The notes below the pieces were generated by a model. It made no database searches. It was not told where the DNA came from and saw only the letters and a program-made list of their open reading frames with translations. From NCBI GenBank assembly GCA_963700985.1, contig OY969554.1, positions 1,856,001 to 1,920,000 on the forward strand: a DNA stretch of 64,000 nt, given 5' to 3'. Each line of letters begins with the position of its first letter. Position 1 is the stretch's first letter. Made by a program: the position numbers and the translations under genes. This document shows positions 982 through 27,229 of this stretch, in pieces. The stretch comes from an uncultured Chlamydiales bacterium (GTDB lineage Bacteria; Chlamydiota; Chlamydiia; Chlamydiales; Rhabdochlamydiaceae).

Positions 982-1226
982 TACCCTCCTGCAACAGGGG
1001 GGATTAGTAAGACGGTGTCTCCCTCATTCAGCGAGGTCTCCCAAGAGGAAATTTTAGAGTTGACCGATGCCTTGACTTGCGACTCTAAGAGCTTAAAGGC
1101 ATGACGCTGTTTAAGCTCTTGATAGAGTTCGCGAACCGTTGCTACCTCAGACTCAACAACCTCTTCAGCAAGGCCTCTTTCTTGTCTGAGCAAGGCGTAA
1201 TAACCCACGCGAATTTTCTTTTTCAT
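981..1226 (-). CDS. moaD: MoaD/ThiS-family sulfur carrier protein
   Basis: 81 aa ubiquitin-like size, ends GDTVLLIPPVAGG (C-terminal Gly-Gly); translationally coupled to moeB. Confidence 0.88.
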   Translation of the reverse strand: MKKKIRVGYYALLRQERGLAEEVVESEVATVRELYQELKQRHAFKLLESQVKASVNSKISSWETSLNEGDTVLLIPPVAGG

Positions 1227-1268
1227 AGCGCTTCTGTAATTATCGTTTATCTTTGCAGAAAACCTCGA

Positions 1269-1547
1269 CTAAGGCTGCAGTGATAGGTATGCTAAGCTAG
1301 CTCCTGCGGCAGCCACCTGTTTCAACTCTGCTTCATTTAACTCATTTACGTTCTTAGGAGCAGCCGGCAGCACAAAAGTAAAATGACCGGCGTCATCTTG
1401 CTGGATACGCACCTCAATATTAGCAGGAACGTCGAAGCCCATTTCTTTTAGAGTCTCTTTGGGCTTAGCAATGAGTTTTTTGCGGAAAGCTGGATCTTTC
1501 CAAGCTTTAGCAATGATTTTAGCTTTCAGATCTTCATTTTTTGCCAT
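1269..1547 (-). CDS. NHLP (nitrile-hydratase-like leader) RiPP precursor peptide
   Basis: Leader IIAKAWKDPAFRKKLIAKPK...FVLP...ELNEAELKQVAAAG is typical of NHLP leaders; short core (G)ASLAYLSLQP; divergent from LanM. Confidence 0.9.
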   Translation of the reverse strand: MAKNEDLKAKIIAKAWKDPAFRKKLIAKPKETLKEMGFDVPANIEVRIQQDDAGHFTFVLPAAPKNVNELNEAELKQVAAAGASLAYLSLQP

Positions 1548-1579
1548 ACTAATTCTCCATTTTGTAATCGTGCATTTAG

Positions 1580-1604
1580 ATTGACAGTTAAGCTATTTGT
1601 CAAT
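1580..1604. promoter_or_regulatory. Inverted repeat ATTGACA-N11-TGTCAAT between divergent precursor and LanM genes
   Basis: 7-bp arms, each containing TTGACA, in the 95-bp intergenic gap; matching -10 boxes are weak. Confidence 0.4.
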
Positions 1605-1642
1605 TTCTATACAGATATTTCTAAAACAGGATAGGTTCAGAG

Positions 1643-4495
1643 ATGTGGCACGAGCTTTTTTTGGACGAAAATGTATCTGGTGAAATACCCCGTGAAGTTT
1701 CTGCTCTGCCCTTTGGAATGGTGGTTTGGCCTTGGGCAGTTGCCATCAGAAGGCAGCTACGCTCTTCGGAAAGCTTATCTAGCATTGCATATGACCAACT
1801 TCAGTTCGCTCTTGCGCAAGATTTAAGCCTATTATGTGCGCCTGCAATGACTATGGAACTTGGGCTCGCGCGTTTAACAGGTCGATTGGAGGGTGAAACT
1901 CCCGAGGAGCGGTTCCAGAATTTCGCACGCCAGAGATTAATGCAAAAAGAGGGCCTGGAAGAATTTTTTGCTGAATATGGCGAGCTTAGGAAATATGTCG
2001 AGTTGGCTGTGCATTTCTGGATTGAGCATGTAAATGAACTGATAGAGCACTTAGAGCAAGACTTGCCTCTACTTCAAGAAAAATTTGGGAAGGGCACTCT
2101 GCTTGGGCAGGTAAGTGAGATAGTTTGTGGCGTTGGAGATAAGCATCAAGAGGGAAGAGAGGTCTTTATTTTGCACTTTGCTGGTGGGCAGAAGTGTATT
2201 TATAAACCCAAAGATCTAAAGATTGTCGCCGCATTTCAAAACCTGCTTGAAATCGCTAATTCGCTAAACCCTTCTATTAAGCTCAAAAATTATCTCGTGT
2301 TGCCGCGAGGAGAGTATGGATGGGAGGAATATGTCCCCGCTTTTGCTTGTCTTAATCAAGCCGAGGTAGAGCGTTATTTTACGCGGTCGGGCATGCTGCT
2401 TTGTCTCTTCTATTTGGCTGGCGGATCAGATGCGCATTTTGAAAATCTAATTGCATCTGGTGAAAATCCCATGCTGATCGATTGTGAAACACTTTTTTTC
2501 GCTAGGATTGCTTATTCCTATTCTCATGGCTCAATACAAAAGCCAAGTGTTTTGAACACAGGTATGCTTCCATTTTTGTACGTAGGTAAGCTCGGGAAAA
2601 AAGGCATAGATATGAGCGCGCTAGGATCGGAATCAGATCAAGTGATTCCGAATCTCTTGCCATATTGGGCTAATATGAATACCGATGAGATGCAGCTCAA
2701 TTATCAAAGTAGTGTTTTGGAAACGAGTAAACAGCAGGTGTTTTTAGCAGGCAAGCCGATTGCTGCTAAAGAATATGTTGAACAGATCGTTCAAGGCTTC
2801 AATGAGATGTACAGTTTGATCGGTAGCAGCAAAGCAGTGATAAGTGCATGGATTGAGGAAGCAGCTGAGCATCCTGTCAGATTCATTGCAAAACCTACCT
2901 TCGTTTATTTTCTGCTGCTGCGAAACTTGCGTCAGCCTCAGGCGCTTTTGCATGTGGAGGAGCGCCAAAAAATCCTCGCTCACCTAGATGAGCTTCTTCA
3001 AGATCAGGAGCGATTCAAGGCGATTCGAAAAGAGGAGGAAAGGGCTCTTTTTAGAGGTGATATTCCTATGTTCCACTCCTTTCCCAAGAAAACTGATCTC
3101 TTCTGCGGCAGCAAACTTATTCTTGAGAATTGCCTGAGCGGCAGCGCTTATGATGCAGTAAAAAAACTGCTTGATCAATGGGGCGAAAAAGACCGGCAGC
3201 TGCAAGCGCGCTTCATACGCGATGCTTTTCTTGTAAAAGAGTTAGCCGTGCATGAGGAGGCAGAGCTGCCTGTTTCTGACGCGCCTTTGATTGTTAATAA
3301 AAATGAAATTTGGGAGAGCATTCTTGCCATTGCTCATGATTTGAAGAAGCGGGCGATTGTCTCAGAAGATGGCTCGCTTAATTGGGTTGGCTTTGAGCCA
3401 AATGCTTTAAGCGATCAATATACGCTTCAGCCGCTCAGTGAAAATCTTTACTCAGGAAAGATTGGCATCGCTCTTTTTTTTGCAGCTTTGGCGGCTGCAG
3501 GTCATCCTCAGTGGGAAGAGGAAGCCCTTAATACTTTAAAGGGGATAAGGCAAATTTTAGCGCAGGAAAAAGAAGCTATTAATCAATTTGCTGGGCTTGG
3601 CGTAGGCGCTATGTCGGGAGCCAGCGGAATTGCTTATGTGCTTTTGTCGGTGGGCCAGATGTTAGACCTGCCCGAGCTTATCGAAGAAGCGCATAGATTT
3701 CTGCTGCTGCTTGATTCTGAAATTATCGAAAAAGATACATTCAATGACGTGATTGGAGGGAGTGCGGGTTTAATTCTCGTTTTACTAGCTGTGTATCGAA
3801 AGGTTTTAGATCCCAAATTGTTAACACTTGCCAGCACGGCAGCGGATAGTTTGTGTAAAAAAGTCGTTGCTATTGAACAGGGAATGGCCTGGCTAAACAA
3901 CAATACCCCAGAGGCACTTCTTGGGTTTTCGCATGGCACTGCCGGATGCGCCTATGCTTTGCTTAAGCTTGCAGAATATGTTCCAAATCCCCAATACCAG
4001 AAAGTTGCAGCGGGAGCTTTAGCTTATGAGCGCAGTTTATTTTCTAAAGATAAGCAAAATTGGCCTCACTTCACACCCATTGGTACAAAAGAAACCGTGG
4101 GCTGGTGTCATGGAGCTACCGGGATTGGACTGAGTCGCCTGGCGCTCAGCAAGATAATGCGGAATTCGAGCATCGAGGAGGAGATCCAAGTTGCGCTTGC
4201 CACCACATTGCGTGAAGCTGAAACACACTTTTCGTGCAATCTATGCTGTGGTTCTCTTGGCCACCTCGAATTTCTCCAAGAAGCCGCAAAAATCCATCCA
4301 CATCCTTTATTGAATGAGGCCATCGAGAAATTGGTCTCAAGAACCGTTGCGCACCATAAGAGAATCAGCAAAAATGGAACCGACGGTGGATTTCATGTGC
4401 CTAGTTTCATGAAAGGCGCAGCAGGTGTTGGCTATACGCTACTACGCCATCTTCATCCCGAAAAAAACTTCCCTCAAGCTCTCCTCCTCACATAA
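1643..4495 (+). CDS. lanM: Class II lanthipeptide synthetase LanM (dehydratase + LanC-like cyclase, CCG type)
   Basis: Dehydratase motifs GDKH..G, YKPK, GWEEYV, DAHFEN, IDCETLF, RFIAKPT, GDIPMF; cyclase motifs LYSG, GFSHG, WCHG, LCCG, MKGAAG. Confidence 0.92.
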   Translation: MWHELFLDENVSGEIPREVSALPFGMVVWPWAVAIRRQLRSSESLSSIAYDQLQFALAQDLSLLCAPAMTMELGLARLTGRLEGETPEERFQNFARQRLMQKEGLEEFFAEYGELRKYVELAVHFWIEHVNELIEHLEQDLPLLQEKFGKGTLLGQVSEIVCGVGDKHQEGREVFILHFAGGQKCIYKPKDLKIVAAFQNLLEIANSLNPSIKLKNYLVLPRGEYGWEEYVPAFACLNQAEVERYFTRSGMLLCLFYLAGGSDAHFENLIASGENPMLIDCETLFFARIAYSYSHGSIQKPSVLNTGMLPFLYVGKLGKKGIDMSALGSESDQVIPNLLPYWANMNTDEMQLNYQSSVLETSKQQVFLAGKPIAAKEYVEQIVQGFNEMYSLIGSSKAVISAWIEEAAEHPVRFIAKPTFVYFLLLRNLRQPQALLHVEERQKILAHLDELLQDQERFKAIRKEEERALFRGDIPMFHSFPKKTDLFCGSKLILENCLSGSAYDAVKKLLDQWGEKDRQLQARFIRDAFLVKELAVHEEAELPVSDAPLIVNKNEIWESILAIAHDLKKRAIVSEDGSLNWVGFEPNALSDQYTLQPLSENLYSGKIGIALFFAALAAAGHPQWEEEALNTLKGIRQILAQEKEAINQFAGLGVGAMSGASGIAYVLLSVGQMLDLPELIEEAHRFLLLLDSEIIEKDTFNDVIGGSAGLILVLLAVYRKVLDPKLLTLASTAADSLCKKVVAIEQGMAWLNNNTPEALLGFSHGTAGCAYALLKLAEYVPNPQYQKVAAGALAYERSLFSKDKQNWPHFTPIGTKETVGWCHGATGIGLSRLALSKIMRNSSIEEEIQVALATTLREAETHFSCNLCCGSLGHLEFLQEAAKIHPHPLLNEAIEKLVSRTVAHHKRISKNGTDGGFHVPSFMKGAAGVGYTLLRHLHPEKNFPQALLLT

Positions 4496-4675
4496 AGATG
4501 GAAGATGAGGTTCTTCAGGAGACACCCAAAGCAACCTAAAAAGATCTCCAGAGAATTTATTGGGACAGGCTCTGGGAAATCCCAGTCTTTCGGTTGTTAA
4601 AATTCTCCCTATTTAGCTAATGTCACTTAAAGAGGATAGAAACCCTAAGGCACGTGTTTAGCAGAGAATAAATGG

Positions 4676-5344
4676 ATGATTATCACATCTCGATCTCACA
4701 ATTTATCTTTGCCTGAGCTAAGGGGAGCACTCTTTTATATAATTGAATTGCAGAAAATTCAAGATACAGAAATCGAACAGGCAAAAGCATATCTTGACAG
4801 TGCAACGCTAGATCGAGCTCAGAAATTCATATTTGATGAAGATCGAAAGAGGAGACTTCTTGTTCATGCTATTTTGAGGTTTCATCTTGAAAAACTAATA
4901 AAGCAAAAAGCTTCCTCGATTAAGATTTTACGTGATGGTATTGGCAAACCTTATCTCGAAGGGCACCCGATTCATTTTAATCTTTCTTATTCCGACCAGT
5001 ATGCTTTTCTAGCATTTCATCCTCATTCTCCCATCGGAGTAGACATCGAACGAATTCAAGATGGTTTGCCTTTTCTAAGAATTGCCGATCTATTCATGCA
5101 TCCTTCTGAAAAGCGACAAATGAATGAAAATAAAAACCCTCGCGACTATTTTTTTACCTTATGGTGTGCCAAAGAAGCTCTTCTCAAAGCTAAGGGGCTT
5201 AATTTTGATGGGTTACGCTATTTACAGCTAGAAAACGCATCTTCATCTCACGATGTCGAGCACTTTTTCTCAATGGATTTTGAAGTTTACGTCTATAAAA
5301 ATAGGGTTATGAGCCATAGAATGGCTACATGTCATGCTTTATGA
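4676..5344 (+). CDS. Sfp-type 4'-phosphopantetheinyl transferase
   Basis: GKPYL, HFNLSYS, IGVDIE, WCAKEALLKA motifs; next to an NRPS. Confidence 0.9.
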   Translation: MIITSRSHNLSLPELRGALFYIIELQKIQDTEIEQAKAYLDSATLDRAQKFIFDEDRKRRLLVHAILRFHLEKLIKQKASSIKILRDGIGKPYLEGHPIHFNLSYSDQYAFLAFHPHSPIGVDIERIQDGLPFLRIADLFMHPSEKRQMNENKNPRDYFFTLWCAKEALLKAKGLNFDGLRYLQLENASSSHDVEHFFSMDFEVYVYKNRVMSHRMATCHAL

Positions 5345-6526
5345 AGGCTCCCTTTCTATTGCTATAGCAATAGCCTCCCCTCCGCCAAGACATGTTACTG
5401 CGATGCCGCGCCGCATGTTTTTTTGTTTCAGGGCATATAATAATGTCACCAAAATTCTAGCTCCTGAAGCCCCAATAGGATGACCTAACACTATAGAACC
5501 ACCGTTAATATTGACTTTATCATTTGAAATATTTAGTTCTTTTATAACGGCGAGTATTGCTACTGCAAATGCTTCATTGATTTCAAATAAATCCACTTCG
5601 TCTTTTTCCCAACCAACCTTCTTGAGCAAGCCGTTGATAGCTCCAATGGGGGCTGTTGTAAACCACGACGGCTGGTGTGCATACGTATAATGGCCGATGA
5701 TTTTTCCTAAAAAATTGAGGCTTCTTTTTTCCGCTTCAGCTTGGTCCATTAATAGTAGCGCTGCAGCTCCATCTGCAAGTGAACTGGAATTAGCTGCTGT
5801 TATGGTGCCCTCTTTGATAAAAGCAGGAGGTAGAGTAGCTATTTTGGAGGGAATTACTTTTTTAAGTCCTTCATCGGTGTGTACGGAAATTTTTTCATTT
5901 AAATCATTTTCAATCGTAATCGGTACTATTTCTTCTAAGACTTCTCCTTTTTGACTCCGTTCAGCTCGTATAGCTGTTTCCAAGGCATAGGCATCTTGCG
6001 CTTCACGGGAGATATGATATTTTGTTGCACATTGTTCTGCCAGATGTCCCATCGACTTACCTTTATCATAAGCATCTTCTAATCCATCTCGCATCATATG
6101 GCTAAAAATTTCTGGCCGCGATGAAGTCGAGCCTGGTCGAGGGGCTATCATTAAATTAGGCGCTCGGCTCATATTTTCCATTCCACCAGCAATGACTATT
6201 TTGTAAGAACCTGCCAGAATTTCGTCATGAGCAATAAGAACGGCTTTCAGTCCAGATCCACAGACTTTATTTATTGTCGTGCAAGGAACGCAATTGGGAA
6301 TGCCACCGGCAATCGCTGCTTGCCTTGCAGGTCCCTGACCCAAACCCGCTGTTAAAACGCAACCCATCAAGACTTCTTCAACATCATTGGGATTTATATT
6401 TGCTCGAGAAATGGCAGCTTGGATCGCTATGCTGCCTAATACAGTAGCCGGCATATTTTTAAAGTAACCGTGTAAACTGCCGATTGGTGTGCGAGCCGCG
6501 CTAACGATAACTATTTTTGTTTTCAT
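5339..6526 (-). CDS. Acetyl-CoA C-acyltransferase (thiolase)
   Basis: TINKVCGSG (catalytic Cys), NEAFA, GHPIGASG, CLGGG; starts 24 bp after the NRPS stop. Confidence 0.93.
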   Translation of the reverse strand: MKTKIVIVSAARTPIGSLHGYFKNMPATVLGSIAIQAAISRANINPNDVEEVLMGCVLTAGLGQGPARQAAIAGGIPNCVPCTTINKVCGSGLKAVLIAHDEILAGSYKIVIAGGMENMSRAPNLMIAPRPGSTSSRPEIFSHMMRDGLEDAYDKGKSMGHLAEQCATKYHISREAQDAYALETAIRAERSQKGEVLEEIVPITIENDLNEKISVHTDEGLKKVIPSKIATLPPAFIKEGTITAANSSSLADGAAALLLMDQAEAEKRSLNFLGKIIGHYTYAHQPSWFTTAPIGAINGLLKKVGWEKDEVDLFEINEAFAVAILAVIKELNISNDKVNINGGSIVLGHPIGASGARILVTLLYALKQKNMRRGIAVTCLGGGEAIAIAIEREPS

Positions 6527-6550
6527 ACACTATTGGAAGGGGGTTGATCC

Positions 6551-9500
6551 TTAAGAGCTCTCATTTAAAAGAGGTGATATTTCGTCTGCAAATTTGGTAA
6601 GTAAGGAATAGTGATTGCCTGATATTTTTTCCACTTGAATGCCTCCCTCAGTATATGGAGACCACATAGTGCGGGCTTCATTTTTTGGTATTTTTTTTAT
6701 GTCGCCAATAGATTCTGAGGCTACTAAAACAAGAAGAGGGCTCTTTATGATATTAGGCAAATGCTCCTTAAGAGATCTCGCATTTAGCTGAACTTGGTAG
6801 ATCCATTGTTTGATTTGATCGATCCCCATCTCTTCATGGATCACTTTTGCTTCTTTAGCCTTACTTAAAAGAAGATGAATTTGTTCGTCTAAGGATAAAG
6901 GCTCTAATTCTTCTTGAGAGATATTTAAGACTATACCGTAACGAGAGGCGACATCTAAGGCAAATTGAGTCAAAACCCAAGCGGAATTATCAAAAGGATA
7001 AAGTTTTTTGCCCAGCCATAAGCTACTATCAATTAAAACAACACGGGCAACATTTTCACCCGCCTTTTCCAATTGGTAAGCCATTTCGTGGGCAATCACT
7101 CCTCCCATGGACCAACCGATAAGTGTATAAGGACCTTTAGGTTGTACTTGTTGCATTGCCCGAATGTAAGTGGCGGCCATCTGTTTTATGGATTCATGCT
7201 TATCGAATATGAAGATCTGTTGAATCCCATAAAAAGGTTGGTTTTTCCCTAAAGAACGACTTAAATCTATGTACCAATACGCATTTCCTCCAATAGGATG
7301 AACGGCAAAATAGGGTGTGTTGCTGCCCTTAGTTTGAATAGATACTATGTGTGATGCTAAGAAATTTTCGTTAGGTTGTTGAATGACTTCCGATAATGCA
7401 GAGATAGTTGGATTTTCAAAAACAATACTGAGAGGAACTTCTATTTGAAACTCATTTTTTATTCGAGATAGCATTTGAATAGCTAATAGGGAGTGTCCTC
7501 CAATATTAAAGAAACTGTCATTGATGCCAAATTCATCTGTTTTTAAAATATCGGACCAAATTTTTGCCAATTGTTTTTCAATTTTAGTTTTAGGCGGTTG
7601 ATGTTGTTTTTGTGTTACTTTATCTTTATGCAGTTCACCTAGTTTTTTCTTGTCTACCTTATTATTAATAGTAAGCGGAACAGTTTCGATAGGGATATAT
7701 ATCTGTGGCAACATGTAATCAGGCAAATGATCTTTTAAAAATTTCCGCAGTTGTGATTCTATTTTTGAAATAGGATTTTGTTCTGGGATGCTTGGGGCCT
7801 GCTTTAATTCATTATCGATGTACCCTCCGAGTATACCACATAAAAATGTTTCATTAGGTGCAATCAATGGTATCGAATGCATTGCTTTACTGCTTATGGC
7901 TGCTAATGGCGAATAGAAACCTATATCGCCTTCTAATCTATTTTCCATGATTTTTTGGATTTGCTCACCGACTTCTCGCAAAACCAATGGATTAGATTCG
8001 CCAATAAAAAAGATTGAAAAGGCAGCTTCATTTAAAAGATCTGCATTAAATCCGTACGCATAAGAATCTAAAACATAAGAAGGGTCTATGATTTCCAGTT
8101 TATTATCTTTCCAAATATATAATCCCTGAATCAAATCATAAAATCGATCGGGCTTTACATAGACAAAAACTTTTGGTGACTTAATGTTTTGAGAGCTTGG
8201 AAAAGTTTTTGAGGAATTGATGTAAAAGACAGATAACAAATGGTGATTTTTATCTAATTTCAATAGATCAAGCCACAGAGCTTCTTCCAAGTCATTTTCA
8301 CCTTCAATACAGCTGTATTTTTTTTCTTCGCAGGCGGATTTTAATAAATGCTGCATGCTGCCCGCCTCCAGTTCACATAATCGCATTGCTAGTGGCCCAT
8401 AAAGTGGGCTAATCGCATTTAGATTGGCAACAAACTCTATTCGTATTTCGTCTACTTGAGTTGGCGTAACTAAAAATAAGCCATGTAAAATTGGATTGTA
8501 GTAATAAACCCCTTCGGCCAGCTTGCAAGGATTCTGTGCAGTTAACCAAACATAAACATTTACAGGGTATAAACGACCGCCGGAAAAATAACGGTAATTC
8601 GGTAAAGCTAGATCTTTAGCGTAGGCTGCGAAAACACTTAACAACTGATCCAGGCCTTCTTCTGTTACGAGGTTGCACCCGACAACTTCTGTATCATCTT
8701 CGATATCGGTTTCTTTGATTGGAATCAGCTCTAGCAATCGAACAAGTTGGCGATGCTTTAACGTCCCTTCAGCAAATTTGCGATAGCGCTTTTGGTAGAA
8801 ATATTTTTCCTCGAAATTGAGAATATTATCTAGAGAACCTATCGGATACATCTTTGTATTAGATGGGAATTGTCTTATGCCTATTTGTTTAAGCCTAAAC
8901 GCATTTTTCTTTTGGAAGTCTCGAATTACTGCTTGACCCAACATTTCGTCTTCTTCTTTAATTCCCTTTGGCAATATATAAGCAACTAATTGACGATATG
9001 CTCCTTCACCAACAGCGTCAACAATGGCTTGTTCAACTGAAGGATTCCGAGATAACTGGTATTCAACTTCCCCTAACTCAACGCGGTGTCCGCTTATCTT
9101 TACCTGAAAATCATCTCTTCCTAGAAATTCGATATTTCCACTAGGCAGATACCGACCTAAATCCCCAGTATTATATAGCCGTTCTTGAGTTAGTGGATGG
9201 AAAATAAAACTGTCTCGAGTCATCTTTTCATCTTTCCAATACCCCTGAGCTAAACCTGAGCCGCCAATATATAATTTCCCTATAACCCAAGATGGTCTTA
9301 CTTCAAGGTTATCATCAAACACCCAAATTTGCTGATTGGATAGCGGCTTGCCGTAAGGGATGCTTTTCCAAGAGTCTTCAATTCGCTTTATAGGATAGTA
9401 AACAGACCAAATTGATGCTTCCGTAGCACCGCCCAAGCTAATGATTTCTATGGGAGAACTGCTTAGTTCATGAATTTTTGGAACGAGTTCCAAAGGAATC

Positions 9501-11974
9501 CAATCGCCACTTAGTAATATAAGTCTTAATGAATGAGGTATTTTTTGTTTTTGGCCTTGTAAATATTCTACCAGCATTTGCATCGCCATCGGAACTGAAT
9601 TCCAGATGGTTACTTCGTGCTGTTCAATCAACGCAAGCCAATGGTCAGGGTTCTTTATTTTATCTGCATCGGGAATTACGATGGATGCTCCCTCTGATAA
9701 CATACCAAAGATGTCATAGACAGATAGATCGAAGGATAAAGAGGAAAATGCCAGAATTTTATCCTTCTTTGAAATATGAAAACGTCGATTGATGTCGATA
9801 ATAGTGTTCATTGCGGAACGATGTTGGATCATTACACCTTTAGGGTTACCTGTGCTTCCTGAAGTGTAAATCACATAGGCTAAATCGTCGCTTTTTTGAA
9901 TTACTTTTAATGCTTGGGTGTCTTTGGTCTCGAGATAAGTGTCTACGCTAATGAGGTTTATGTTTTGGGGCCATAAGAGGGTATCTTGAAAGTGCTTTTG
10001 TGTTAAAACGATCTTGACTTCTGCTTGGGCTAATAAGTCTTTTAAACGTTGCGGCGGTATTGCGGGGTTGACTGGCAAATAGGCTCCGCCTGCTTTCTGA
10101 ATTGCTAGCACACTGACAATTTGCTCCCATCCCTTATCACAAACTATGGCAATTAATTCCCCAGATTTTATTTTGTGATTTTGAATTTGAAGAGCAAAAT
10201 TATTTGATAAAACATCTAATTCTCTGTACGTTATTTGTTTATTCGAAGTAATTATGGCTATTTCATCTGGATTTTTCTTAGCTTGAATTGAAAAAGGTGT
10301 AATCATTAACTGGCTAGGAATATCAGCTGATGTCGAATTGATCTGATCGCACAAACTCTGCATAACCTGAGAGGTCAAGTTATGTGTTGTTGCTTCCCAA
10401 GCTTTTTGATCCAGTAATTGAAGCAGGAGCCGTTGATACGCTTCAAACATGTCGTCGAGCAAATGTTGAGGAAACAAGGCTTCAATGGCATCCCAGCTAT
10501 AATGTAGTTCCCCATTTTCTTCTGCCACTTGATGATCTAAATAGACTTGTGGAGTTTCAGTAATAGCATATTTTATTTTTCCGAATCTTTCTTTATAAAG
10601 ACTGCCAATTCCCAGCCAACTAGTGAAAACGACAGGCATTAAAGGAAAAGGATTATGCTGGGCTTTTCCAAGCATCCGCAATACTTCTATCCCATGAATA
10701 ACGCTATGACTTAAATCTTCCAGTAATTGTTTTTGTGTTATTTGAGTTCTGTCAAAAAAACTACGGGTGATTGCGTTTTGGACTTCAAGCAAAATCAATG
10801 TTGTAAAATCTCCAACAAGTTGATTAACTTCAGGATGCATCGGAAAACGTCGAAATTGCGTTAAATTTAAAGTGAAATGCGGCGTTTTGCTCCAGTGACC
10901 TAATACTTCACAAAAAACCGTTATTAGTAGTGCTGCAGGGGTAATATTGGCTTCTTGAGCCAGCAACTGCAATTTCTGCCATTGCGTTTTTGTAAGTTTG
11001 CCTTCTCGACGGGAAAAATGAGATTTCTCTTTTAGGCTTTTAGTGAGTATTGGCAGTTCAGGAGGCCCAGGCAAACTTTGGACGCGTGATTGCCAATAGT
11101 TTAAATCATTTTGGTAAGCATCCGTATTTTTTAAAGTTGCTTCAGCTAATACATATTCACGAAAACTAATATCTAAATGTTTCGGTAATTCTTTGGGATT
11201 ATTATAAAGCCTGAATAGCTCATCCATTAAAAGGACGTAGCTCCACGCATCTCCAATTAACAAATCATAGTTAAAATGAATCCGTGTAAGATTGCCAGGC
11301 AGATGGCTGGCTTGCAAAGTAAATAAAGGCCAACGATTTGTGGACAAAACCTCATGCGATAATTCTGCTCGGGTCTTGGCTAGAGAGAGTTTTCTTTCAT
11401 TTTCAGGCAGCTCTCGCAAATCATGACATTCTATACGATAGTATTTAACTTCTCGTAAAATTCGCTGCTGTCCATCTTCTTCAATGATAGCACGCAACAT
11501 ATCATGTCGCTGAATGAGAAGATTCCAAGCTTTTTCAAATCGTTCTAGATCTAAATCTTTTGAGTCAATTTCAACATATATGTGGCAGGATGTCCCTCCC
11601 CAAATAAATTCACTTCTTCTACCCACCCAATATGCTTGCTGAATAGGGCTTAAGGGGAACGGCTCATATCTATTCTGAAGGTCGGCCTCAATTTGCGGAA
11701 TTTCTAAACCCTTATGTGCCTTTTTTGGGGCAATTTTGGCGATGTCCGCTATCGTTTGATTAAAAATATCGAGAATATTTAAATCTAAGTGCAGCTTTTC
11801 GTTAATTTTGTCTGCAATTTGAGCTGCTAGTAGAGAATGACCACCCAGCGCAAAAAAATTATCATGGCGCCCAATCTTTTCAAAGCCAAAGACTTCTTCC
11901 CATATTTTTGTTAGCTTTTCTTCTATTTCCCCTTGAGGAGGCTCGAAAAAACTTTCAGGATTATCATTCGACAT
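6551..11974 (-). CDS. Single-module NRPS: T - heterocyclization (Cy) - A(Cys) with embedded oxidase - T - TE
   Basis: T: FFALGGHSL; Cy: FPLSPIQQAY, DLLIGDAWS, PVVFTS, TPQVYLD; A: YTSGSTGNPKG, SFDLSVYD, TGDLGR; Ox: YFSGGRLYPV, LEAG; T: FNIGGHSL; TE: GWSMGG, GNHY. Confidence 0.93.
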   Translation of the reverse strand: MSNDNPESFFEPPQGEIEEKLTKIWEEVFGFEKIGRHDNFFALGGHSLLAAQIADKINEKLHLDLNILDIFNQTIADIAKIAPKKAHKGLEIPQIEADLQNRYEPFPLSPIQQAYWVGRRSEFIWGGTSCHIYVEIDSKDLDLERFEKAWNLLIQRHDMLRAIIEEDGQQRILREVKYYRIECHDLRELPENERKLSLAKTRAELSHEVLSTNRWPLFTLQASHLPGNLTRIHFNYDLLIGDAWSYVLLMDELFRLYNNPKELPKHLDISFREYVLAEATLKNTDAYQNDLNYWQSRVQSLPGPPELPILTKSLKEKSHFSRREGKLTKTQWQKLQLLAQEANITPAALLITVFCEVLGHWSKTPHFTLNLTQFRRFPMHPEVNQLVGDFTTLILLEVQNAITRSFFDRTQITQKQLLEDLSHSVIHGIEVLRMLGKAQHNPFPLMPVVFTSWLGIGSLYKERFGKIKYAITETPQVYLDHQVAEENGELHYSWDAIEALFPQHLLDDMFEAYQRLLLQLLDQKAWEATTHNLTSQVMQSLCDQINSTSADIPSQLMITPFSIQAKKNPDEIAIITSNKQITYRELDVLSNNFALQIQNHKIKSGELIAIVCDKGWEQIVSVLAIQKAGGAYLPVNPAIPPQRLKDLLAQAEVKIVLTQKHFQDTLLWPQNINLISVDTYLETKDTQALKVIQKSDDLAYVIYTSGSTGNPKGVMIQHRSAMNTIIDINRRFHISKKDKILAFSSLSFDLSVYDIFGMLSEGASIVIPDADKIKNPDHWLALIEQHEVTIWNSVPMAMQMLVEYLQGQKQKIPHSLRLILLSGDWIPLELVPKIHELSSSPIEIISLGGATEASIWSVYYPIKRIEDSWKSIPYGKPLSNQQIWVFDDNLEVRPSWVIGKLYIGGSGLAQGYWKDEKMTRDSFIFHPLTQERLYNTGDLGRYLPSGNIEFLGRDDFQVKISGHRVELGEVEYQLSRNPSVEQAIVDAVGEGAYRQLVAYILPKGIKEEDEMLGQAVIRDFQKKNAFRLKQIGIRQFPSNTKMYPIGSLDNILNFEEKYFYQKRYRKFAEGTLKHRQLVRLLELIPIKETDIEDDTEVVGCNLVTEEGLDQLLSVFAAYAKDLALPNYRYFSGGRLYPVNVYVWLTAQNPCKLAEGVYYYNPILHGLFLVTPTQVDEIRIEFVANLNAISPLYGPLAMRLCELEAGSMQHLLKSACEEKKYSCIEGENDLEEALWLDLLKLDKNHHLLSVFYINSSKTFPSSQNIKSPKVFVYVKPDRFYDLIQGLYIWKDNKLEIIDPSYVLDSYAYGFNADLLNEAAFSIFFIGESNPLVLREVGEQIQKIMENRLEGDIGFYSPLAAISSKAMHSIPLIAPNETFLCGILGGYIDNELKQAPSIPEQNPISKIESQLRKFLKDHLPDYMLPQIYIPIETVPLTINNKVDKKKLGELHKDKVTQKQHQPPKTKIEKQLAKIWSDILKTDEFGINDSFFNIGGHSLLAIQMLSRIKNEFQIEVPLSIVFENPTISALSEVIQQPNENFLASHIVSIQTKGSNTPYFAVHPIGGNAYWYIDLSRSLGKNQPFYGIQQIFIFDKHESIKQMAATYIRAMQQVQPKGPYTLIGWSMGGVIAHEMAYQLEKAGENVARVVLIDSSLWLGKKLYPFDNSAWVLTQFALDVASRYGIVLNISQEELEPLSLDEQIHLLLSKAKEAKVIHEEMGIDQIKQWIYQVQLNARSLKEHLPNIIKSPLLVLVASESIGDIKKIPKNEARTMWSPYTEGGIQVEKISGNHYSLLTKFADEISPLLNESS

Positions 11975-12189
11975 AGTTATTCTCTAAAGACGGCAGATTT
12001 AATTAGTCGAGTTTGTTTTGAGACATACAACTTTTTGATATTTTGAAATATAAGAAAATAGCAATAGTCCTCTTATTTTTTATCCAAGCTTTTATCTTCT
12101 TTCAGCATGTTTAGCGTTCCGCGTCTTATTACTGAGAAACTTTTTGCGCCATCTTCACCCTGACAAAAACTCCTTTTCCCAAGTCCTTA

Positions 12190-14394
12190 TTAGAGGTTGC
12201 CGGTTTGGACGAGATCGCGGTAGGTGCCTGGAGTGCTCTTGAGAGCTTCGTGGTTGCCTCTTTGGATGATTTTGCCTTTAGCAAGGACGATGATCTCATC
12301 GCAGTCACGAATGGAGCTTAGGCGGTGGGCGACCATCACGCATGAGCAGCCGCGCTGGCGAATATTTTGAATGATGGCTTCCTCGGTTTTGGTATCTAAG
12401 GAGCTTGTCGCTTCATCGAGCACGAGAATTTTGGGGTTGAGCAGAAGGCCGCGGGCAATTTCTAACCTCTGCCTTTGCCCGCCCCCGATATTCATGCCTC
12501 TTTCGGTCAATTGATAGGAGTAGCCGCCGGGCTTTTGCATGATTTCCTCGTGGATGCAGGCGTCTTTGGCCGCACGAATAATCTCATCATCACTCACGGT
12601 GTGATCATAGAGAGTAATGTTGTCTTTAATCGTTCCACTGAAGAGAAAGATCTCTTGATCGATTGTTGCAAGCGAAGCGAAGAGATCTTGCCTTGAATGC
12701 TCAAGGCGTGTTTTTCCATCGAAGAGAATATCTCCCGTCCAGGGTTGGACGAGCCCCGAAATCAATCTTCCAATTGTAGTCTTGCCGCACCCGGATGGCC
12801 CTACAAGCGCAATCTTTTGCCCAGGAGTGAGGTGCAAGTTGAAATCTTCGATAAAGGGTGGGTCGAGAGGTGAGTAGCCATAACTGACATTTCGCAATTC
12901 TAAATACCCTTCCAGGCGTTTTATGGGCTCTGTCCTCTCCTTATTCTTCTGAATGTCTTCATCTCTAAATAAGGGGTCGATGGGATTTTTCATGACATCA
13001 TCAATCCGGGCCATATCGATTTTGAGGTTCTGAATCGATTGGCCAAGATCCACGAGCTCTTTTACAGGAGTAGTAAAGTTAGTAATGAATAGTTGTAAGG
13101 AGGTGTAAAGACCCATGGTGAAATTCTCAGTCATGAGCATCCACCCACCAACTCCGAATAGAACTGTTGAAATAAGAGTCTGAGTGAAGGTGGGAAGAGA
13201 GATGCAGAAGACATTGATTTTGCCTAGCCGCTGCTCGGTGTTAAGTGATTTCTTAAAATATCCGATTAGCTTTGAGAAAAAAGCTGATTCATCACCCATC
13301 GCTTTGATCGACTCAATGCAACTTAAGCCTCCAATTGTAAATCCCATGAATTTGCCATAATCCTGTTGCAGCTTTGCATAGGCATCATTGCGACGCTTTT
13401 GCAGGAGCACAACAGCCACAAAATTGAGAGATGTTAACAGAATTACAATCACGGCGATGGTCGCGCTGAAAAGGAACATGAGGCTGGCGTAGATGATCAT
13501 GAAGAGCAGGCTTATGCAAGCAGGGGCAAGCCGGCCTGTGAGCTCATTGATTACTGTATCATTTAAGGAGAGACGATAAGCGATCTCTCCACCATAACGC
13601 TGTTGGAAAAATGTAATCGGAAGCTTAAGAATATGCATTAAATACTGGCCAGAAAGCGCGATGGAGAGCCTTGTATTCAGCCGGGTCAAAAGATATTGCT
13701 GTAGCCAGACCAAGAGTCCCGTCAATAGGACCAGCAGGCACATCGAAAAAATAAACCAATTTGACCAGGAGAACATATGTTTTTCGATGATGATGTCGAA
13801 AAATATCTTGTTAAAGAAAGGATATAGAGCGCCTGCAATCATGATGCAAAAACCGCTGAACAATAGAAAAAAGACCGCGGGTTTTGAATTTTTTAATCTG
13901 TCGAAGACGCCTGGCCAAATTGAAGGTGGCCTTCCAGAAGGTTTGAAGCTCTCAGTTTTAGCAAAAGTAAATACAATGCCGGAATAACTCTCTTCAAATT
14001 CAGAAAAGGGGATCTTTCTTGGACCAGAAGCCGGGTCATTGAGATACACATGGGTTTTCGAAAAACCCTCCACAACAAGAAAGTGACGAAAATCCCAGAG
14101 TACAATGAAGGGCAGTTCGAGTTCTTGTAGCTCCTCCACACTCTTTTTAAAGACTTTGGATTGCAGGCCGTAGGTCTCAGCCGCCTTTTTTATGTTTAGG
14201 GCGTTGCTGCCATCACGAGAGACGCCGCACTCAACCCGAAGCTCTTCTAAAGGGATAAAGTAGCCAAAATAGCCGAGAATGATGCCAAGAGAGGCCGCTC
14301 CACACTCTACGGCTTCCATTTGGATAACCGTCGGAGTTCGGACACGCTTTACGTGGCGCCAAGCTGAAAAAAAGGATTTCAGCTTCTCTATCAT
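12190..14394 (-). CDS. NHLP-type peptidase-containing ABC transporter (C39 peptidase + TMD + ATPase)
   Basis: TPTVIQMEAVECGAA (catalytic Cys), HFLV, NDPASG; Walker A GPSGCGKT; GGGQRQR; LDEATS. Confidence 0.93.
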   Translation of the reverse strand: MIEKLKSFFSAWRHVKRVRTPTVIQMEAVECGAASLGIILGYFGYFIPLEELRVECGVSRDGSNALNIKKAAETYGLQSKVFKKSVEELQELELPFIVLWDFRHFLVVEGFSKTHVYLNDPASGPRKIPFSEFEESYSGIVFTFAKTESFKPSGRPPSIWPGVFDRLKNSKPAVFFLLFSGFCIMIAGALYPFFNKIFFDIIIEKHMFSWSNWFIFSMCLLVLLTGLLVWLQQYLLTRLNTRLSIALSGQYLMHILKLPITFFQQRYGGEIAYRLSLNDTVINELTGRLAPACISLLFMIIYASLMFLFSATIAVIVILLTSLNFVAVVLLQKRRNDAYAKLQQDYGKFMGFTIGGLSCIESIKAMGDESAFFSKLIGYFKKSLNTEQRLGKINVFCISLPTFTQTLISTVLFGVGGWMLMTENFTMGLYTSLQLFITNFTTPVKELVDLGQSIQNLKIDMARIDDVMKNPIDPLFRDEDIQKNKERTEPIKRLEGYLELRNVSYGYSPLDPPFIEDFNLHLTPGQKIALVGPSGCGKTTIGRLISGLVQPWTGDILFDGKTRLEHSRQDLFASLATIDQEIFLFSGTIKDNITLYDHTVSDDEIIRAAKDACIHEEIMQKPGGYSYQLTERGMNIGGGQRQRLEIARGLLLNPKILVLDEATSSLDTKTEEAIIQNIRQRGCSCVMVAHRLSSIRDCDEIIVLAKGKIIQRGNHEALKSTPGTYRDLVQTGNL

Positions 14395-15698
14395 GGATTT
14401 GTGTCCTTAGATAAGTGGCGAAAGATATACGGAGCTATTTTGTCAGGCAAAATGTACATGATGGGGGGCTTTTCATCTGTAATAGTAAGCACTGTGCCTG
14501 TTGTGCCTGAATCGAGTAGCCATGGCGGCCCTTGTCCGGTAGACCAGCGGTAACCACTCTGTGTATGTGGGTCTTGATCTAAGCGGATAATTGCGAGGTA
14601 GACCAGTTTATTGTCATCCTTAAGAAAGTCGACAATGTCTTTGTTTTTTACTTGAGCCATAAGTTCTTGGCTCGTCACAGGGTAAGGCGTGATAAACTGC
14701 GTGGTGCCGAGAAGATAGCCATATTCTTTTGGATCGACACCTGACACTTCGATTTCTGTCTTGAGATTAACATCTAAGCTCTCTCCAAATTCTGCTCCAT
14801 AACAAGCGACATATTGAAGGAGCTGACCTTTTTGAAGCGGCAGTTCCAAAGAAGCAATTTCCATGCCAGAATCGACGTGATCTCCAGCCGAGACGACAAT
14901 CTCTAATACTTTGCCTGTTTTTCCTGCATAAACATTCAAAAACTTATCTTGTAATTCGAGGCGAGCAAGCTCATCTTTTTGGGCATCAATCACAGCTTTC
15001 TTAGCATTGATCTCATCTTGGGCATAAGACTTAGAAAATTGCGCTTGCAGAGATGAAACTTGAGCCATGTTCGACTCAATATCGAGATGCGCTTGCTGAA
15101 GGGCATTTCGCGCATTTTCTACATCGCGAGGTGCTAAAATTCCTATTTGCTCAAGTCGAATTTTGGAAGCTAAATCTTTTTCTAAAAATGGGATCTTACT
15201 TTGGGCAGACTTCATGGCGAGTTGAGTGGCTTCGATCTGCTTTTGGATAGAACTTTTTCGCGCAGCGTCTTCAGATTCTATTCTTACATTATAGGCTTGA
15301 AGATCGTTTTCGCTGACCTGGATTTGTTCTTTTTTCAACTGAATATCGAGCGCAAGGGAGGCGTTTTGTAGCCTTGCGATTAAGGTTCCCTCTCCCACGA
15401 GCTGTCCAGCTGTAGCATAGACTCTATTTACAGTTCCTGCAATCGATGTAGTAATGACATAAGGTCCTTCTTGAGTAAGAGAGATTCCCGAGCCCTTTAC
15501 CTTAATAGGAATGGTTCCAAAGAAACTCCAGACAAGGGCTATGAAGATAATCGCAAACGAAGTGCTGAGCGTGAGCCAGCTTTTAGAGGTGACGATTTGC
15601 ATCAACTCTTCTAAATCTTCGGCAGAAGTCAACCTGGTAAATTTTGCTTTTTCGTTTTCCTTTTCGACAGCTTCAGGATTTGGATTTTCTGCTTCCAT
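14391..15698 (-). CDS. HlyD-family membrane fusion protein of an NHLP export system
   Basis: N-terminal RLTSAEDLEELMQIV + TM + GTIPIKVKGSGI, long coiled coil, C-terminal SGYRWSTGQGP; overlaps the ABC gene. Confidence 0.88.
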   Translation of the reverse strand: MEAENPNPEAVEKENEKAKFTRLTSAEDLEELMQIVTSKSWLTLSTSFAIIFIALVWSFFGTIPIKVKGSGISLTQEGPYVITTSIAGTVNRVYATAGQLVGEGTLIARLQNASLALDIQLKKEQIQVSENDLQAYNVRIESEDAARKSSIQKQIEATQLAMKSAQSKIPFLEKDLASKIRLEQIGILAPRDVENARNALQQAHLDIESNMAQVSSLQAQFSKSYAQDEINAKKAVIDAQKDELARLELQDKFLNVYAGKTGKVLEIVVSAGDHVDSGMEIASLELPLQKGQLLQYVACYGAEFGESLDVNLKTEIEVSGVDPKEYGYLLGTTQFITPYPVTSQELMAQVKNKDIVDFLKDDNKLVYLAIIRLDQDPHTQSGYRWSTGQGPPWLLDSGTTGTVLTITDEKPPIMYILPDKIAPYIFRHLSKDTNP

Positions 15699-15703
15699 GA
15701 TGG

Positions 15704-17347
15704 CTATTCTCCAGGGGCTAATTTACAGCGTTCTTCAATGAAGCACTCAACTGGCGTAGAAGGAGTAGAGAGAACCACCGGATATGTCAATACATCCTCC
15801 ACTTCTGTCACAATTTCACCTTCTCGATCCCAACTGATAAGTGTTCCGGAAAGAAGACGCAGCTGCAGCAAATTCTCTGTAAATAGAGTTTGCGAATTGA
15901 TTAAGCTGAGAAGTGCAGTCAGCCAGTTATTTTCTAAAGTTAATACGACGAAGTAAGAACTGAGACCGTTTTGCAATTTTATTTTCTCCGCTTCCACAGT
16001 CTTTCGATATTCTTCAGCAGCCAGTTGGTTTTTCTTTACTTCTTCGAGCAGGGCGTTTGTGGATGTATAAGAGGTTTTAAAACTAGAGATAATCTGACTC
16101 TCTAAAAGATCCATATTCACGATGGCCTGAGACCTTAAAGCACGCTGCTGTTTGACAAGGCCTCTTGCGGTGTCATTGAAGATCGGGAATGAAAAGGTGA
16201 CTCCAACGGTGTAGTCTTTTTCTGGATTTTGCGCTCTAGTAGAGTCGAACACGTGTCTTGCCCTTCCGAGAGCCGCTGTATTAAGGAAATTCGCTTCACC
16301 GACGAGATCGACAGCTGGCAGAAGCGAATTTTTAGCCGATCTCAAGTTGAGCTCTGCGATTTTAATGAGAAGGTTTGCAGAGAGAATGTCAGCTCGATTA
16401 AAGGGGATTAGGTTGAGTAAGCTGTCATACCAAGTTAGATCTAGACCGCTATAAGTGTTGAAGTCTGGAAAATCCTCTATGTTGAACTCGGGAACCTGCT
16501 GATTTTCGTCAGGAATGAATCCCATGTTGAAAAGCAGAGTGTTATAGGCGGCTTTTAAATTTTGTTCGGCTTGAATTCGATTCGCTGTGGCTAGATTTAG
16601 ATCGGCATGCGGTTGATAAGCAGTTGTGTAGCCCTCTTGCCCCTCTTTAACCAACTCATCCGCATAGCGGGCAATTTCACAAAAACGCATCTCGAGATCT
16701 TTTTGAATAGCTAACACCTTTAAGGCAGAGACGTATTGCCAATACGCCGTAATCGAATTAAAGATCGCATTGGCGATATTCTGCACGTTTTGTAAGCGAA
16801 AGGCTTTGAGTTGTAGCCGCTGCGTCTCTTCGAGAGTAGTCTGTGGACTATACAGAAGGTTGCGCAAGAGCGGCTGATTAACCGATACCCCCACGGTGGT
16901 GGAATCTTGAGGCGAAGGGATAATTGTGGGGTTAATGATGTTGTCATTCGAGAAATTGATCGAATAGGTCGTTCCGAATCGAGAGAGCGTTTGCAACGAG
17001 ACTACGGTATTCGTGGTTCTTCCATGAAAATGGGTTTTATTTCCCGGAGGATTTTGAATATCTCTTTGAAACAGACGTGTTCCTTCTGAGGTTAGCAGGG
17101 GATTAAAAGCTCCCGTTGCCTGTTCAAGCAAGCCCTCTTGAGTCTTAATAGTAAGCTCGGATGTCTGCACAGACCATTGAAACTCAAGGGTATGCATGAT
17201 CACTTCATCCAAAGTAAGCAGAGGCTTTTCTTCCAAATACAGAATGGGCGCAGCGTGAACTGCAAGGGAAAACCCAACGACAAAAGCGATGGATAGATAG
17301 GCGAAAATCATGTCACTTCTGTGATATTTAAAATATTTGCTTGTCAC
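15704..17347 (-). CDS. TolC-family outer membrane protein
   Basis: Signal peptide, LTLDEVI, LLPAVDL, VTFSFPIF, GLSSYFVVL repeats; first gene of TolC-HlyD-ABC operon. Confidence 0.82.
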   Translation of the reverse strand: MTSKYFKYHRSDMIFAYLSIAFVVGFSLAVHAAPILYLEEKPLLTLDEVIMHTLEFQWSVQTSELTIKTQEGLLEQATGAFNPLLTSEGTRLFQRDIQNPPGNKTHFHGRTTNTVVSLQTLSRFGTTYSINFSNDNIINPTIIPSPQDSTTVGVSVNQPLLRNLLYSPQTTLEETQRLQLKAFRLQNVQNIANAIFNSITAYWQYVSALKVLAIQKDLEMRFCEIARYADELVKEGQEGYTTAYQPHADLNLATANRIQAEQNLKAAYNTLLFNMGFIPDENQQVPEFNIEDFPDFNTYSGLDLTWYDSLLNLIPFNRADILSANLLIKIAELNLRSAKNSLLPAVDLVGEANFLNTAALGRARHVFDSTRAQNPEKDYTVGVTFSFPIFNDTARGLVKQQRALRSQAIVNMDLLESQIISSFKTSYTSTNALLEEVKKNQLAAEEYRKTVEAEKIKLQNGLSSYFVVLTLENNWLTALLSLINSQTLFTENLLQLRLLSGTLISWDREGEIVTEVEDVLTYPVVLSTPSTPVECFIEERCKLAPGE

Positions 17348-21513: not shown

Positions 21514-21514
21514 A

Positions 21515-26913: not shown

Positions 26914-26929
26914 AAAATTACATTCTCTT

Positions 26930-27211: not shown

Positions 27212-27229
27212 TAAACTCTCATTTAGCTT

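Follow-up and report, generated by a model that had tools for sequence, protein, structure and literature searches.

A stand-alone thiazole-type synthetase module in a chlamydial bacterium: an orphan first carrier domain and a co-transferred thiolase as a possible source of its starter

What does a thiazole-forming module of a nonribosomal peptide synthetase (NRPS) start from if it has a carrier domain for the starter and the genome has no conventional enzyme to load that carrier? The question is raised by a 64,000-nucleotide (nt) stretch of DNA, hereafter the window (positions 1,856,001 to 1,920,000 of contig OY969554.1, GenBank assembly GCA_963700985.1), from an uncultured Chlamydiales bacterium of the Rhabdochlamydiaceae. 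One of its genes encodes a single-module NRPS in which an N-terminal carrier domain (T1) is followed by a heterocyclization domain (Cy), an adenylation domain (A) with an oxidase insert (Ox), a second carrier (T2) and a thioesterase (TE). Starter loading decides the product of a thiazole-forming module, and it is known to be achieved by a second A domain, by an aryl- or fatty-acid ligase, by a polyketide synthase (PKS) loading module or by an FkbH enzyme. The present locus is a rare clean case: in a small, complete, one-contig genome each known class of loader was sought and none was found, and the only co-inherited candidate is a thiolase.

Pfam and NCBIfam models, BLASTP and comparison with solved structures were applied to the translations of the open reading frames (ORFs) of the window. 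The NRPS gene and its parts are as follows (PCP, peptidyl carrier protein; aa, amino acids):

6551..11974, minus strand: NRPS gene, T1-Cy-A(Ox insert)-T2-TE, 1807 aa (ORF list, translation, Pfam, NCBIfam)
11735..11920, minus strand: T1, N-terminal PCP-type carrier, residues 19-80, with Ser47 in GGHSL (Pfam PP-binding, E 1.1e-12)
10367..11659, minus strand: Cy domain, residues 106-536, with DLLIGD at 237-242 (Pfam Condensation; solved Cy relatives)
8966..10288, minus strand: core of the A domain, motifs A1-A8, residues 563-1003, code DLYNLSLIW(K) (Pfam AMP-binding, 8.8e-83 over 563-913; TIGR01733)
7715..8965, minus strand: Ox insert, residues 1004-1420, an Ox core with a putative degenerate second Ox core (BLASTP to P0106; collinear with G019)
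7382..7666, minus strand: motif A10 (NNKVDKKKL, K1439) and T2 (residues 1468-1531, Ser1495) (Pfam, motif position)
6596..7309, minus strand: type I TE, residues 1556-1793, Ser1622 in GWSMGG (Pfam Thioesterase, 2.1e-24)

The NRPS gene is an intact single module of the form T1-Cy-A(Cys)-Ox-T2-TE. Its 1807 codons contain no internal stop, the A domain scores 409 bits against TIGR01733 (NCBIfam cut-off 317), and the active-site serines of T1, T2 and TE are all present. The motif DLLIGD, in which DxxxxD takes the place of HHxxxDG and which the first-pass annotation of this DNA had already named, lies at window positions 11249-11266. Further Cy core motifs in the translation are FPLSPIQQAYWVGR, RAIIEEDGQQ, LPGPPELP, VGDFTT and PQVYLDHQ; we read them against what we take to be the defining list (FPLTxxQxAYxxGR, RAILxxxGxQ, LPxxPxxP, GDFT, QVxLD). 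The highest-scoring solved relative is the BmdB module 7ly7 (754 bits, residues 96-1003), and others are 6lta, PchE (7emy) and the Cy domains of EpoB (5t7z, 292 bits) and HMWP2/Irp2. The specificity code was read by hand against the FDxS, A4-A5 and A10 motifs, at positions that we assume to follow the GrsA numbering: D749, L750, Y753, N792, L820, S822, L847, I855, W856 and K1439 give DLYNLSLIWK. This is the same pocket as had been proposed before, and in a passage of PMC12283262 the string stands among Cys-activating signatures that are tied to Ox-modified units. By this match to a published code the A domain is predicted to activate Cys. The domain order T-Cy-A-Ox-T-TE given by the first-pass annotation holds for the domains and their succession; however, Ox is not a separate domain after A but an insert within it. 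From the domain logic, the product would belong to the class of 2-substituted thiazole-4-carboxylates.

The Ox insert spans 417 residues and is located between motif A8 (GRDDFQVKISGHRVELGEVE, residues 952-971) and motif A10 (residues 1437-1445). It gives no match to Pfam Nitroreductase (PF00881) even at E<=10, and at 42.2 bits it does not pass the curated family model TIGR03605 (SagB, cut-off 78.4). We name it Ox because it aligns to the Ox inserts of NRPSs that bear PF00881. The cyanobacterial NRPS P0106 has an Ox insert with a precomputed PF00881, to which insert residues 15-251 align (BLASTP E 5e-19); insert residues 259-421 match the same P0106 segment a second time (E 8e-12). Since both halves match one Ox segment of other proteins, the insert seems to consist of one Ox core and, behind it, a second that has degenerated; in direct comparison the similarity between the halves is weak (BLASTP E 0.037). 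In the collected homologues 41 Ox inserts embedded in A domains could be delimited (24 of 245-300 residues, 17 of 384-568), with OxA matches falling in the 41 inserts and some of the long inserts showing two clear Ox matches. The insert of the synthetase in the related genome G019 is of the long form and collinear over 417 residues. AlphaFold2, given a two-sequence alignment of the insert, returned a mean pLDDT of 31, too low for use. The two cores may pair within one chain as a pseudo-dimer of the nitroreductase fold, which is normally dimeric.

Which enzyme could load T1? The genome (2,067,302 bases, one contig, 99% complete by markers) was covered by six-frame family searches. The Condensation family occurs in one place, the NRPS gene itself. 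AMP-binding occurs in four places in three genes: the NRPS, a 456-aa ligase and an Aas-like gene. The ligase is taken to be MenE because it directly follows an o-succinylbenzoate-synthase-like gene (MenC), and the Aas-like gene is taken to encode an acyl-ACP synthetase (ACP, acyl carrier protein) because in it an acyltransferase (PlsC) is followed by a carrier domain and then by a ligase. The latter gene spans the contig ends (2065.4-2067.3 kb and 1-1448), where its two parts are in different frames; this break is probably an artefact of circle closure. PP-binding occurs in four places, namely T1, T2, an 87-aa ACP (AcpP) and the Aas-like gene. The sole ketosynthase (KS) is a 452-aa FabF-like gene, the sole acyltransferase (AT) is a 317-aa FabD-like gene close to the ACP gene, and tblastn found no FkbH-like homologue in the genome. 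With no other Condensation domain, adenylation only in MenE and the Aas-like gene, and KS and AT only in FabF and FabD, T1 is an orphan genome-wide: it is without a conventional loader across the whole genome. The first-pass annotation had called the starter unexplained since the window contains no acyl-CoA ligase, aryl-adenylating enzyme or PKS, which is borne out by Pfam on the window proteins, and the lack of a loading partner extends beyond the window to the genome. Its description of the module as stand-alone agrees with the single Condensation match, there being no upstream NRPS or PKS partner in the genome, and the search it proposed for free A domains and acyl ligases returned MenE and the Aas-like gene only; the upstream partner that it had named as counter-evidence is absent.

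The character of T1 itself offers some guidance. Its 47 matches among solved structures are all PCP or ACP carriers from NRPS or NRPS-PKS lines, with carriers of PvdL, PaxA, LgrA, SrfA-C and TycC ranking highest, and include no EntB-type aryl carrier and no PchE N-terminal carrier. T1 shares 35% of its residues with T2; its identity to two carriers from the G019 synthetase is 43% and 36%. T1 and T2 have a lead-in in common (PP-x4-IE-x2-L-x2-IW; EPPQGEIEEKLTKIW vs QPPKTKIEKQLAKIW), which in T2 comes after the A domain. Residues 1-540 were compared by HMMER with 1.84 billion representatives. Nearly all of the best 150 have the T-Cy pair at an internal position, and only in P0381, P0452 and P0014 among them does it start, T included, within the first 120 residues; this ranking favours giants with multiple Cy domains and is indicative only. 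The 215-bp spacer upstream of the NRPS gene contains no remnant of an A domain detectable by tblastn with the G019 NRPSs. To judge from these comparisons, T1 seems to have belonged to an upstream module since lost, yet it has stayed intact.

The NRPS gene did not arrive alone. It lies with two other genes, which the first-pass annotation did not mention, between the LanM and exporter genes of an NHLP/LanM/YcaO-TfuA cluster for peptides that are made on ribosomes and modified after translation (RiPPs):

5339..6526, minus strand: biosynthetic-type thiolase (acetyl-CoA C-acetyltransferase), 395 aa (Pfam Thiolase_N and Thiolase_C; TIGR01930)
4676..5344, plus strand: Sfp-type 4'-phosphopantetheinyl transferase (PPTase), 222 aa (Pfam ACPS, AASDHPPT_N)
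4445..4469, plus strand: direct repeat, left copy, 25 nt, inside the 3' end of LanM (repeat search, 22/25 identical)
12147..12171, plus strand: direct repeat, right copy, in the spacer between the ABC1 stop and the NRPS start (repeat search)

The start of the thiolase gene lies 24 bp downstream of where the NRPS gene stops, both being on one strand, and the PPTase gene converges on the thiolase gene. The PPTase has the two-lobed Sfp-type architecture (PF22624, 2e-10; PF01648, 7e-15), stays below the cut-offs of the equivalog models HetI and AusB, and is the second PPTase of the genome besides AcpS. The G+C content at third codon positions (GC3) is 0.297 for the PPTase, 0.316 for the thiolase and 0.318 for the NRPS, as against 0.39-0.53 in the flanking genes; when the 1344 genomic ORFs that reach 200 aa are ranked by GC3 (mean 0.44, standard deviation 0.06), the three come 14th, 30th and 32nd from the bottom. 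The left copy of the border repeat falls in the last 50 nt of LanM and the right copy shortly beyond the stop codon of the convergent exporter gene. A repeat score of 22/25 was reached in none of 1000 shuffles of the border zones, whose maximum was 20. The NRPS, thiolase and PPTase genes thus form a compositionally foreign, laterally acquired three-gene cassette.

The distribution of the cassette genes among relatives is patchy. A homologue of the Cy module was found in none of five same-genus genomes, LanM being above its cut-off in four of the five, and one of the genus (G001) has only a different A-T gene. Among 40 relatives, strong Cy-module matches occur only in G019 (40% identity) and G035 (27%). 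The N-domain of the Sfp-type PPTase is found in 5 of 41 genomes, including those bearing NRPS genes (the genome studied here, G001 and G019). One soil-metagenome study contains short-read contigs over the cassette and its flanks at similar low depth; none of the contigs listed bridges the cassette borders. In this second strain all three differences in the NRPS gene are synonymous, so the gene looks maintained; for the exporter gene, 11 of 13 are. Over about 480 nt of the exporter (12269-12750) the strains show 12 differences, compared with 3 across the whole NRPS gene, which suggests that strains differ less in the cassette than in its flank, with errors possible at a contig depth below 6. 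A protein from a second assembly (P0002, 1404 aa, 99% identical) differs from the NRPS at 13 positions, four at its cut end and five in the linker between the two Ox cores. Scans for promoters (13 sites vs 21.7 in shuffles) and terminators (4 vs 7.5) were uninformative on operon structure.

The thiolase scores 393 bits against TIGR01930 (cut-off 241), has both Pfam thiolase domains, and retains the catalytic residues Cys89, His349 and Cys379 in invariant columns of an alignment that included 8gqk; literature on PDB entries 8GQK and 8GQL held nothing relevant. It is foreign to its lineage: of 41 related genomes only three (the one studied, G030 and G039) give a strong Thiolase_N match, and the weak matches lie in ORFs of FabH or FabF size. 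No other user of acetoacetyl-CoA is visible in the genome: family searches detected neither an HMG-CoA synthase nor a CoA-transferase, the 3-hydroxyacyl-CoA dehydrogenase family gave partial Rossmann-type matches only, and the single crotonase-family gene lies beside the men genes. At the corresponding place the annotated relatives of the NRPS have a loader or an upstream module: an A-T protein (locus L041), a two-module NRPS (L040, L043), an FkbH protein with a lone carrier (L044), or a fatty-acid ligase with an ACP on a Halotia plasmid. Because the thiolase stands beside the NRPS, was co-inherited with it and is otherwise jobless, and because relatives have a loader there, we rank it first as the source of the starter. 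No thiolase was seen in the annotated neighbourhoods of homologues (L040, L041, L043, L044, the G019 cluster and the Halotia plasmid). At 23 positions the enzyme differs from a residue that at least 85% of 43 close homologues share; six of these positions fall at 124-146, presumably the tetramerisation loop of the Zoogloea enzyme, from which we draw no conclusion.

The pathway we propose would run as follows. The PPTase would convert T1 and T2 to their holo forms, and the A domain would place L-Cys on T2. Cy would then join the acyl group held on T1 to Cys-S-T2 and cyclodehydrate the adduct to a thiazoline, which the Ox insert, presumably of the FMN type, would oxidize to the thiazole, and hydrolysis of the thioester by TE would free a 2-substituted thiazole-4-carboxylic acid. 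The weakest step is the origin of the substituent. The ping-pong chemistry of thiolases runs through an acyl-Cys intermediate, and transfer to the pantetheine thiol of T1 is the same half-reaction that a thiolase performs with CoA. The acetyl-Cys (or acetoacetyl) intermediate of the co-transferred thiolase may therefore be resolved by the phosphopantetheine thiol of holo-T1 in place of CoA; alternatively, the thiolase may make acetoacetyl-CoA that is then taken up by Cy or T1. The product would be 2-methyl- or 2-acetonyl-thiazole-4-carboxylate. We favour tentatively, with doubts that slightly outweigh our confidence, an acetyl or acetoacetyl starter that the thiolase supplies or passes on, so that one of these products would result. 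The more specific proposal, in which a canonical thiolase primes the NRPS directly through resolution of its acyl-cysteine by the pantetheine of an N-terminal PCP, so that PPTase, thiolase and one module make a self-sufficient mobile pathway, we consider rather unlikely. If true, it would mean that an NRPS carrier can be loaded without an adenylation, AT, KS or FkbH enzyme.

Several observations weigh against a starter from the thiolase. T1 is of the PCP type, not the ACP type, and has the lead-in known from T2, which suggests that an A domain loaded its ancestor. The thiolase is an ordinary one, about 60% identical to housekeeping thiolases of Coxiella/Coxiellaceae and other Gammaproteobacteria, with all catalytic residues kept and without obvious specialisation, and it could be a hitch-hiker on the island. 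Full-text searches of the literature yielded no case of a thiolase acylating an NRPS carrier domain. A plasmid with a loader may exist outside the one-contig assembly. No RNA data sets with cassette sequence are listed, and the unameliorated composition suggests that the cassette may be too recent for its intactness to prove function.

An alternative explanation is that the synthetase primes itself: the Cys-specific A domain would load both T2 and T1, in cis or between two synthetases, and the thiolase would be unrelated cargo. Cy would then join Cys-S-T1 to Cys-S-T2 to give 2-(1-amino-2-sulfanylethyl)thiazole-4-carboxylate, or a longer chain if T1 were a waiting position for iterative use. 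This A domain is the genome's sole amino-acid A domain, and T1, whose highest matches (PvdL, PaxA, LgrA, SrfA-C, TycC) are aminoacyl or peptidyl carriers, shares 35% identity and a lead-in motif with T2. That one A domain can serve several carriers is established for HMWP2 of yersiniabactin synthesis and also speaks for self-priming. However, to our knowledge there is no precedent for an A domain that loads a carrier upstream of its own Cy, and the co-transferred thiolase would be left idle although the genome has no other user of its product. Moreover, T1 is no closer to T2 than to the G019 carriers (35% compared with 43% and 36%), so T1 is not a recent copy of T2. We regard self-priming as possible but doubtful.

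The dull outcome would be that the NRPS gene is a captured fragment, the 3' part of a line of the type ...C-A-T / Cy-A-Ox-T-... (C, condensation domain) that was cut at the A-T linker. T1 would be a relic, the enzyme would make nothing or only turn over Cys, and the gene would be intact merely because its capture was recent. The mostly internal position of T-Cy pairs, behind an upstream module, among the best 150 representatives fits such an origin, as do the C-A-T-Cy-A-Ox-T-R synthetase (R, reductase) of same-family G019, with its 40% identity and equally long Ox insert, and the GC3 of the cassette, which is still far from that of the host. Several findings do not fit. The spacer upstream holds no A-domain remnant; the gene has its own PPTase beside it and a terminal TE, and so is a complete unit capable of release; all 1807 codons are open in an assembly that has frameshifts elsewhere (mnmA); the three strain differences are synonymous; and in 1400 residues there are nine aa differences from the second assembly, five of them in the linker between the Ox cores. 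We judge a captured fragment unlikely.

Still less probable is loading in trans by one of the other adenylating or acyl-transferring enzymes of the genome, of which the Aas-like enzyme, MenE and FabD are the only ones; acylation of T1 by one of these would lead to a 2-alkyl-, 2-aryl- or malonyl-derived thiazole-4-carboxylate. Chlamydial acyl-ACP synthetases do load free fatty acids on ACP, which counts for this route. However, the Aas-like gene has its own ACP domain, and AMP-binding ORFs of about 900 aa recur in relatives without an NRPS, which points to a housekeeping role. MenE is part of the men operon, T1 is of the PCP type, and the presence of the thiolase would be left without explanation.

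The last alternative concerns the RiPP cluster into which the cassette was inserted. Its genes next to the cassette are:

1643..4495, plus strand: LanM (TIGR03897, 817 bits; GC3 0.424)
12190..17347, minus strand: NHLP-type exporter of ABC1 (with C39 peptidase), HlyD and TolC (TIGR03796, 931 bits; TIGR03794, 190 bits; OEP)

To the left of the cassette, in order towards the NRPS, the cluster encodes a second NHLP-type ABC subunit, a thioamidation-type YcaO, a TfuA-related protein and six precursors with NHLP leaders, then a ThiF/MoeZ-like E1, a MoaD/ThiS-like carrier ending in GG, a seventh precursor and LanM. In same-genus G004, MoaD, ThiF and LanM adjoin one another and are flanked by six precursors; the RiPP cluster is conserved in the genus, and the cassette is an insert in it. 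We give scant credence to a RiPP-NRPS hybrid, in which the thiazole acid would be attached to, or act together with, the NHLP-leader peptides and leave through the same ABC/HlyD/TolC exit: the cassette does lie between LanM and the exporter, and the NRPS shares its strand with ABC1-HlyD-TolC, but the RiPP genes have a host-like composition unlike that of the cassette, same-genus genomes keep the cluster without it, the annotation of window and cluster includes no ligase or GNAT able to join the NRPS product to peptides, and leader removal by C39 is coupled to export.

The cluster extends over 2012-11226 of locus L058 (contig positions 1848012-1857226) and window positions 1-4495 and 12190-17347. 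Its precursor cores would be only about 8-12 residues long if cleavage occurs at an AAG/AAGG-like site, and just one of the seven cores would contain a Cys; cores nearly free of Cys are odd for a lanthipeptide synthetase such as LanM.

The host is probably a small, environmental chlamydial bacterium of intracellular type, with no NRPS or PKS machinery besides this module. Its genome encodes two full-length TLC-family nucleotide transporters (746 and 616 bits) and a menaquinone operon, the Chlam_PMP family was not found in it, and related genomes measure 0.8-3.6 Mb. The remainder of the window consists of housekeeping genes, and the orders mfd-alaS-tkt and sod-accD-dut-ptsN-ptsN resemble those of Chlamydia genomes. 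A frameshift at a stretch of lysine codons breaks the gene for a mnmA-like tRNA 2-thiouridylase (62198-63282) into two ORFs that overlap, which is probably a homopolymer error of the assembly and otherwise a real pseudogene. Genes for a HigB-like toxin and a helix-turn-helix antitoxin adjoin mfd (26569-27352), three consecutive genes (414, 407 and 326 aa; 19049-22495) have no Pfam family and weak SMC-like coiled-coil matches, and two adjoining MORN-repeat proteins of about 320 aa are encoded at 39270-41423.

How does the synthetase compare with what has been described? Chlamydiota have sporadic biosynthetic clusters, with NRPS genes in few lineages (PMC9666466, PMC13229535); the passages of these two papers that deal with Chlamydiota clusters do not mention a T-Cy-A-Ox-T-TE architecture. 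A search of 5.8 billion proteins, restricted to lengths of 993-3163 aa, returned no twin beyond the partial copy P0002 mentioned above, all others being at most 48% identical. Scans of genomes (10 loci), metagenomes (8 loci) and plasmids found nothing closer than 47% identity, and the plasmid search gave 2695 records with a match, all below 60% identity. None of the literature on such architectures, by title or abstract start, deals with this arrangement. Each part of the NRPS is already known: the Cy-A(Cys)-Ox-T unit is the EpoB and bleomycin type of thiazole module, and a carrier before Cy is the layout of PchE and HMWP2. What is new is that one module, competent for release, has a fused donor carrier of the PCP type, that no loader occurs anywhere in the genome, that a thiolase was co-transferred and that the insertion is in a RiPP cluster. 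The locus raises two non-canonical ideas, transacylation from a thiolase to a carrier and an A domain that serves a carrier upstream of its own Cy, and it documents a recent insertion of an NRPS gene in a RiPP cluster, probably in a chlamydial lineage.

Among the relatives, the closest in the genome collection are Acidobacteriota loci (L040-L049), which are 42-47% identical in their best segments and share a terminal Cy-A(Cys)-T-TE. Their modules differ in that they lack Ox and that a separate protein provides the donor carrier. In one of these, on a contig of a metagenome-assembled genome (L044, 8094-14601), an operon combines an FkbH-domain protein (TIGR01686, 308 bits), a lone 152-aa carrier and a Cy-A-T-TE protein; judging by these domains it would make a glyceryl-primed thiazoline acid, and it appears to be uncharacterised. 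The C-A-T-Cy-A-Ox-T-R synthetase of G019 resembles the NRPS over residues 81-1546 (40% identity), has the same long Ox insert and is likewise accompanied by an Sfp-type PPTase. However, it belongs to a large NRPS-PKS cluster with an MbtH, a type II TE and a terminal reductase, its upstream C-A-T loads the donor carrier, and no thiolase was seen in the cluster.

Three characterised systems come close. In PchE (pyochelin) and HMWP2 (yersiniabactin), as here, a carrier stands at the N-terminus directly before Cy-A(Cys). These carriers are aryl carriers loaded by stand-alone salicylate-AMP ligases, whereas T1 is of the PCP type and the genome has no such ligase; PchE and HMWP2 in turn have neither an embedded Ox nor the form of a single module plus TE. 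As there is no aryl carrier or ligase, the NRPS is not a synthetase for an aryl-capped thiazoline siderophore. BmdB together with BmdC (bacillamide) shares the thiazoline-forming Cy-A(Cys)-T and the oxidation to thiazole by a flavin oxidase. In that system BmdB has its own upstream Ala-activating module, which loads the donor carrier, and the oxidase BmdC is a separate protein, while the NRPS described here has no upstream A domain and its Ox is embedded. In the epothilone pathway the ACP of EpoA and EpoB provide the nearest chemical parallel: Cy-A(Cys)-Ox-PCP, with Ox inside A, acts on a carrier-held acyl group to give a 2-substituted thiazole, as proposed for the NRPS. There, acetyl-S-ACP comes from a PKS loading module and the thiazolyl chain moves on to the PKS. 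In the chlamydial genome the donor carrier is a PCP fused to the module, FabF and FabD are the sole KS and AT, release is by TE, and a thiolase is the candidate source of the acyl group. Because there is no PKS loader (KS-AT-ACP), the NRPS is not a member of the EpoA/EpoB system; the route we tentatively propose would follow the logic of the EpoA ACP and EpoB, with the thiolase replacing the PKS loading module.

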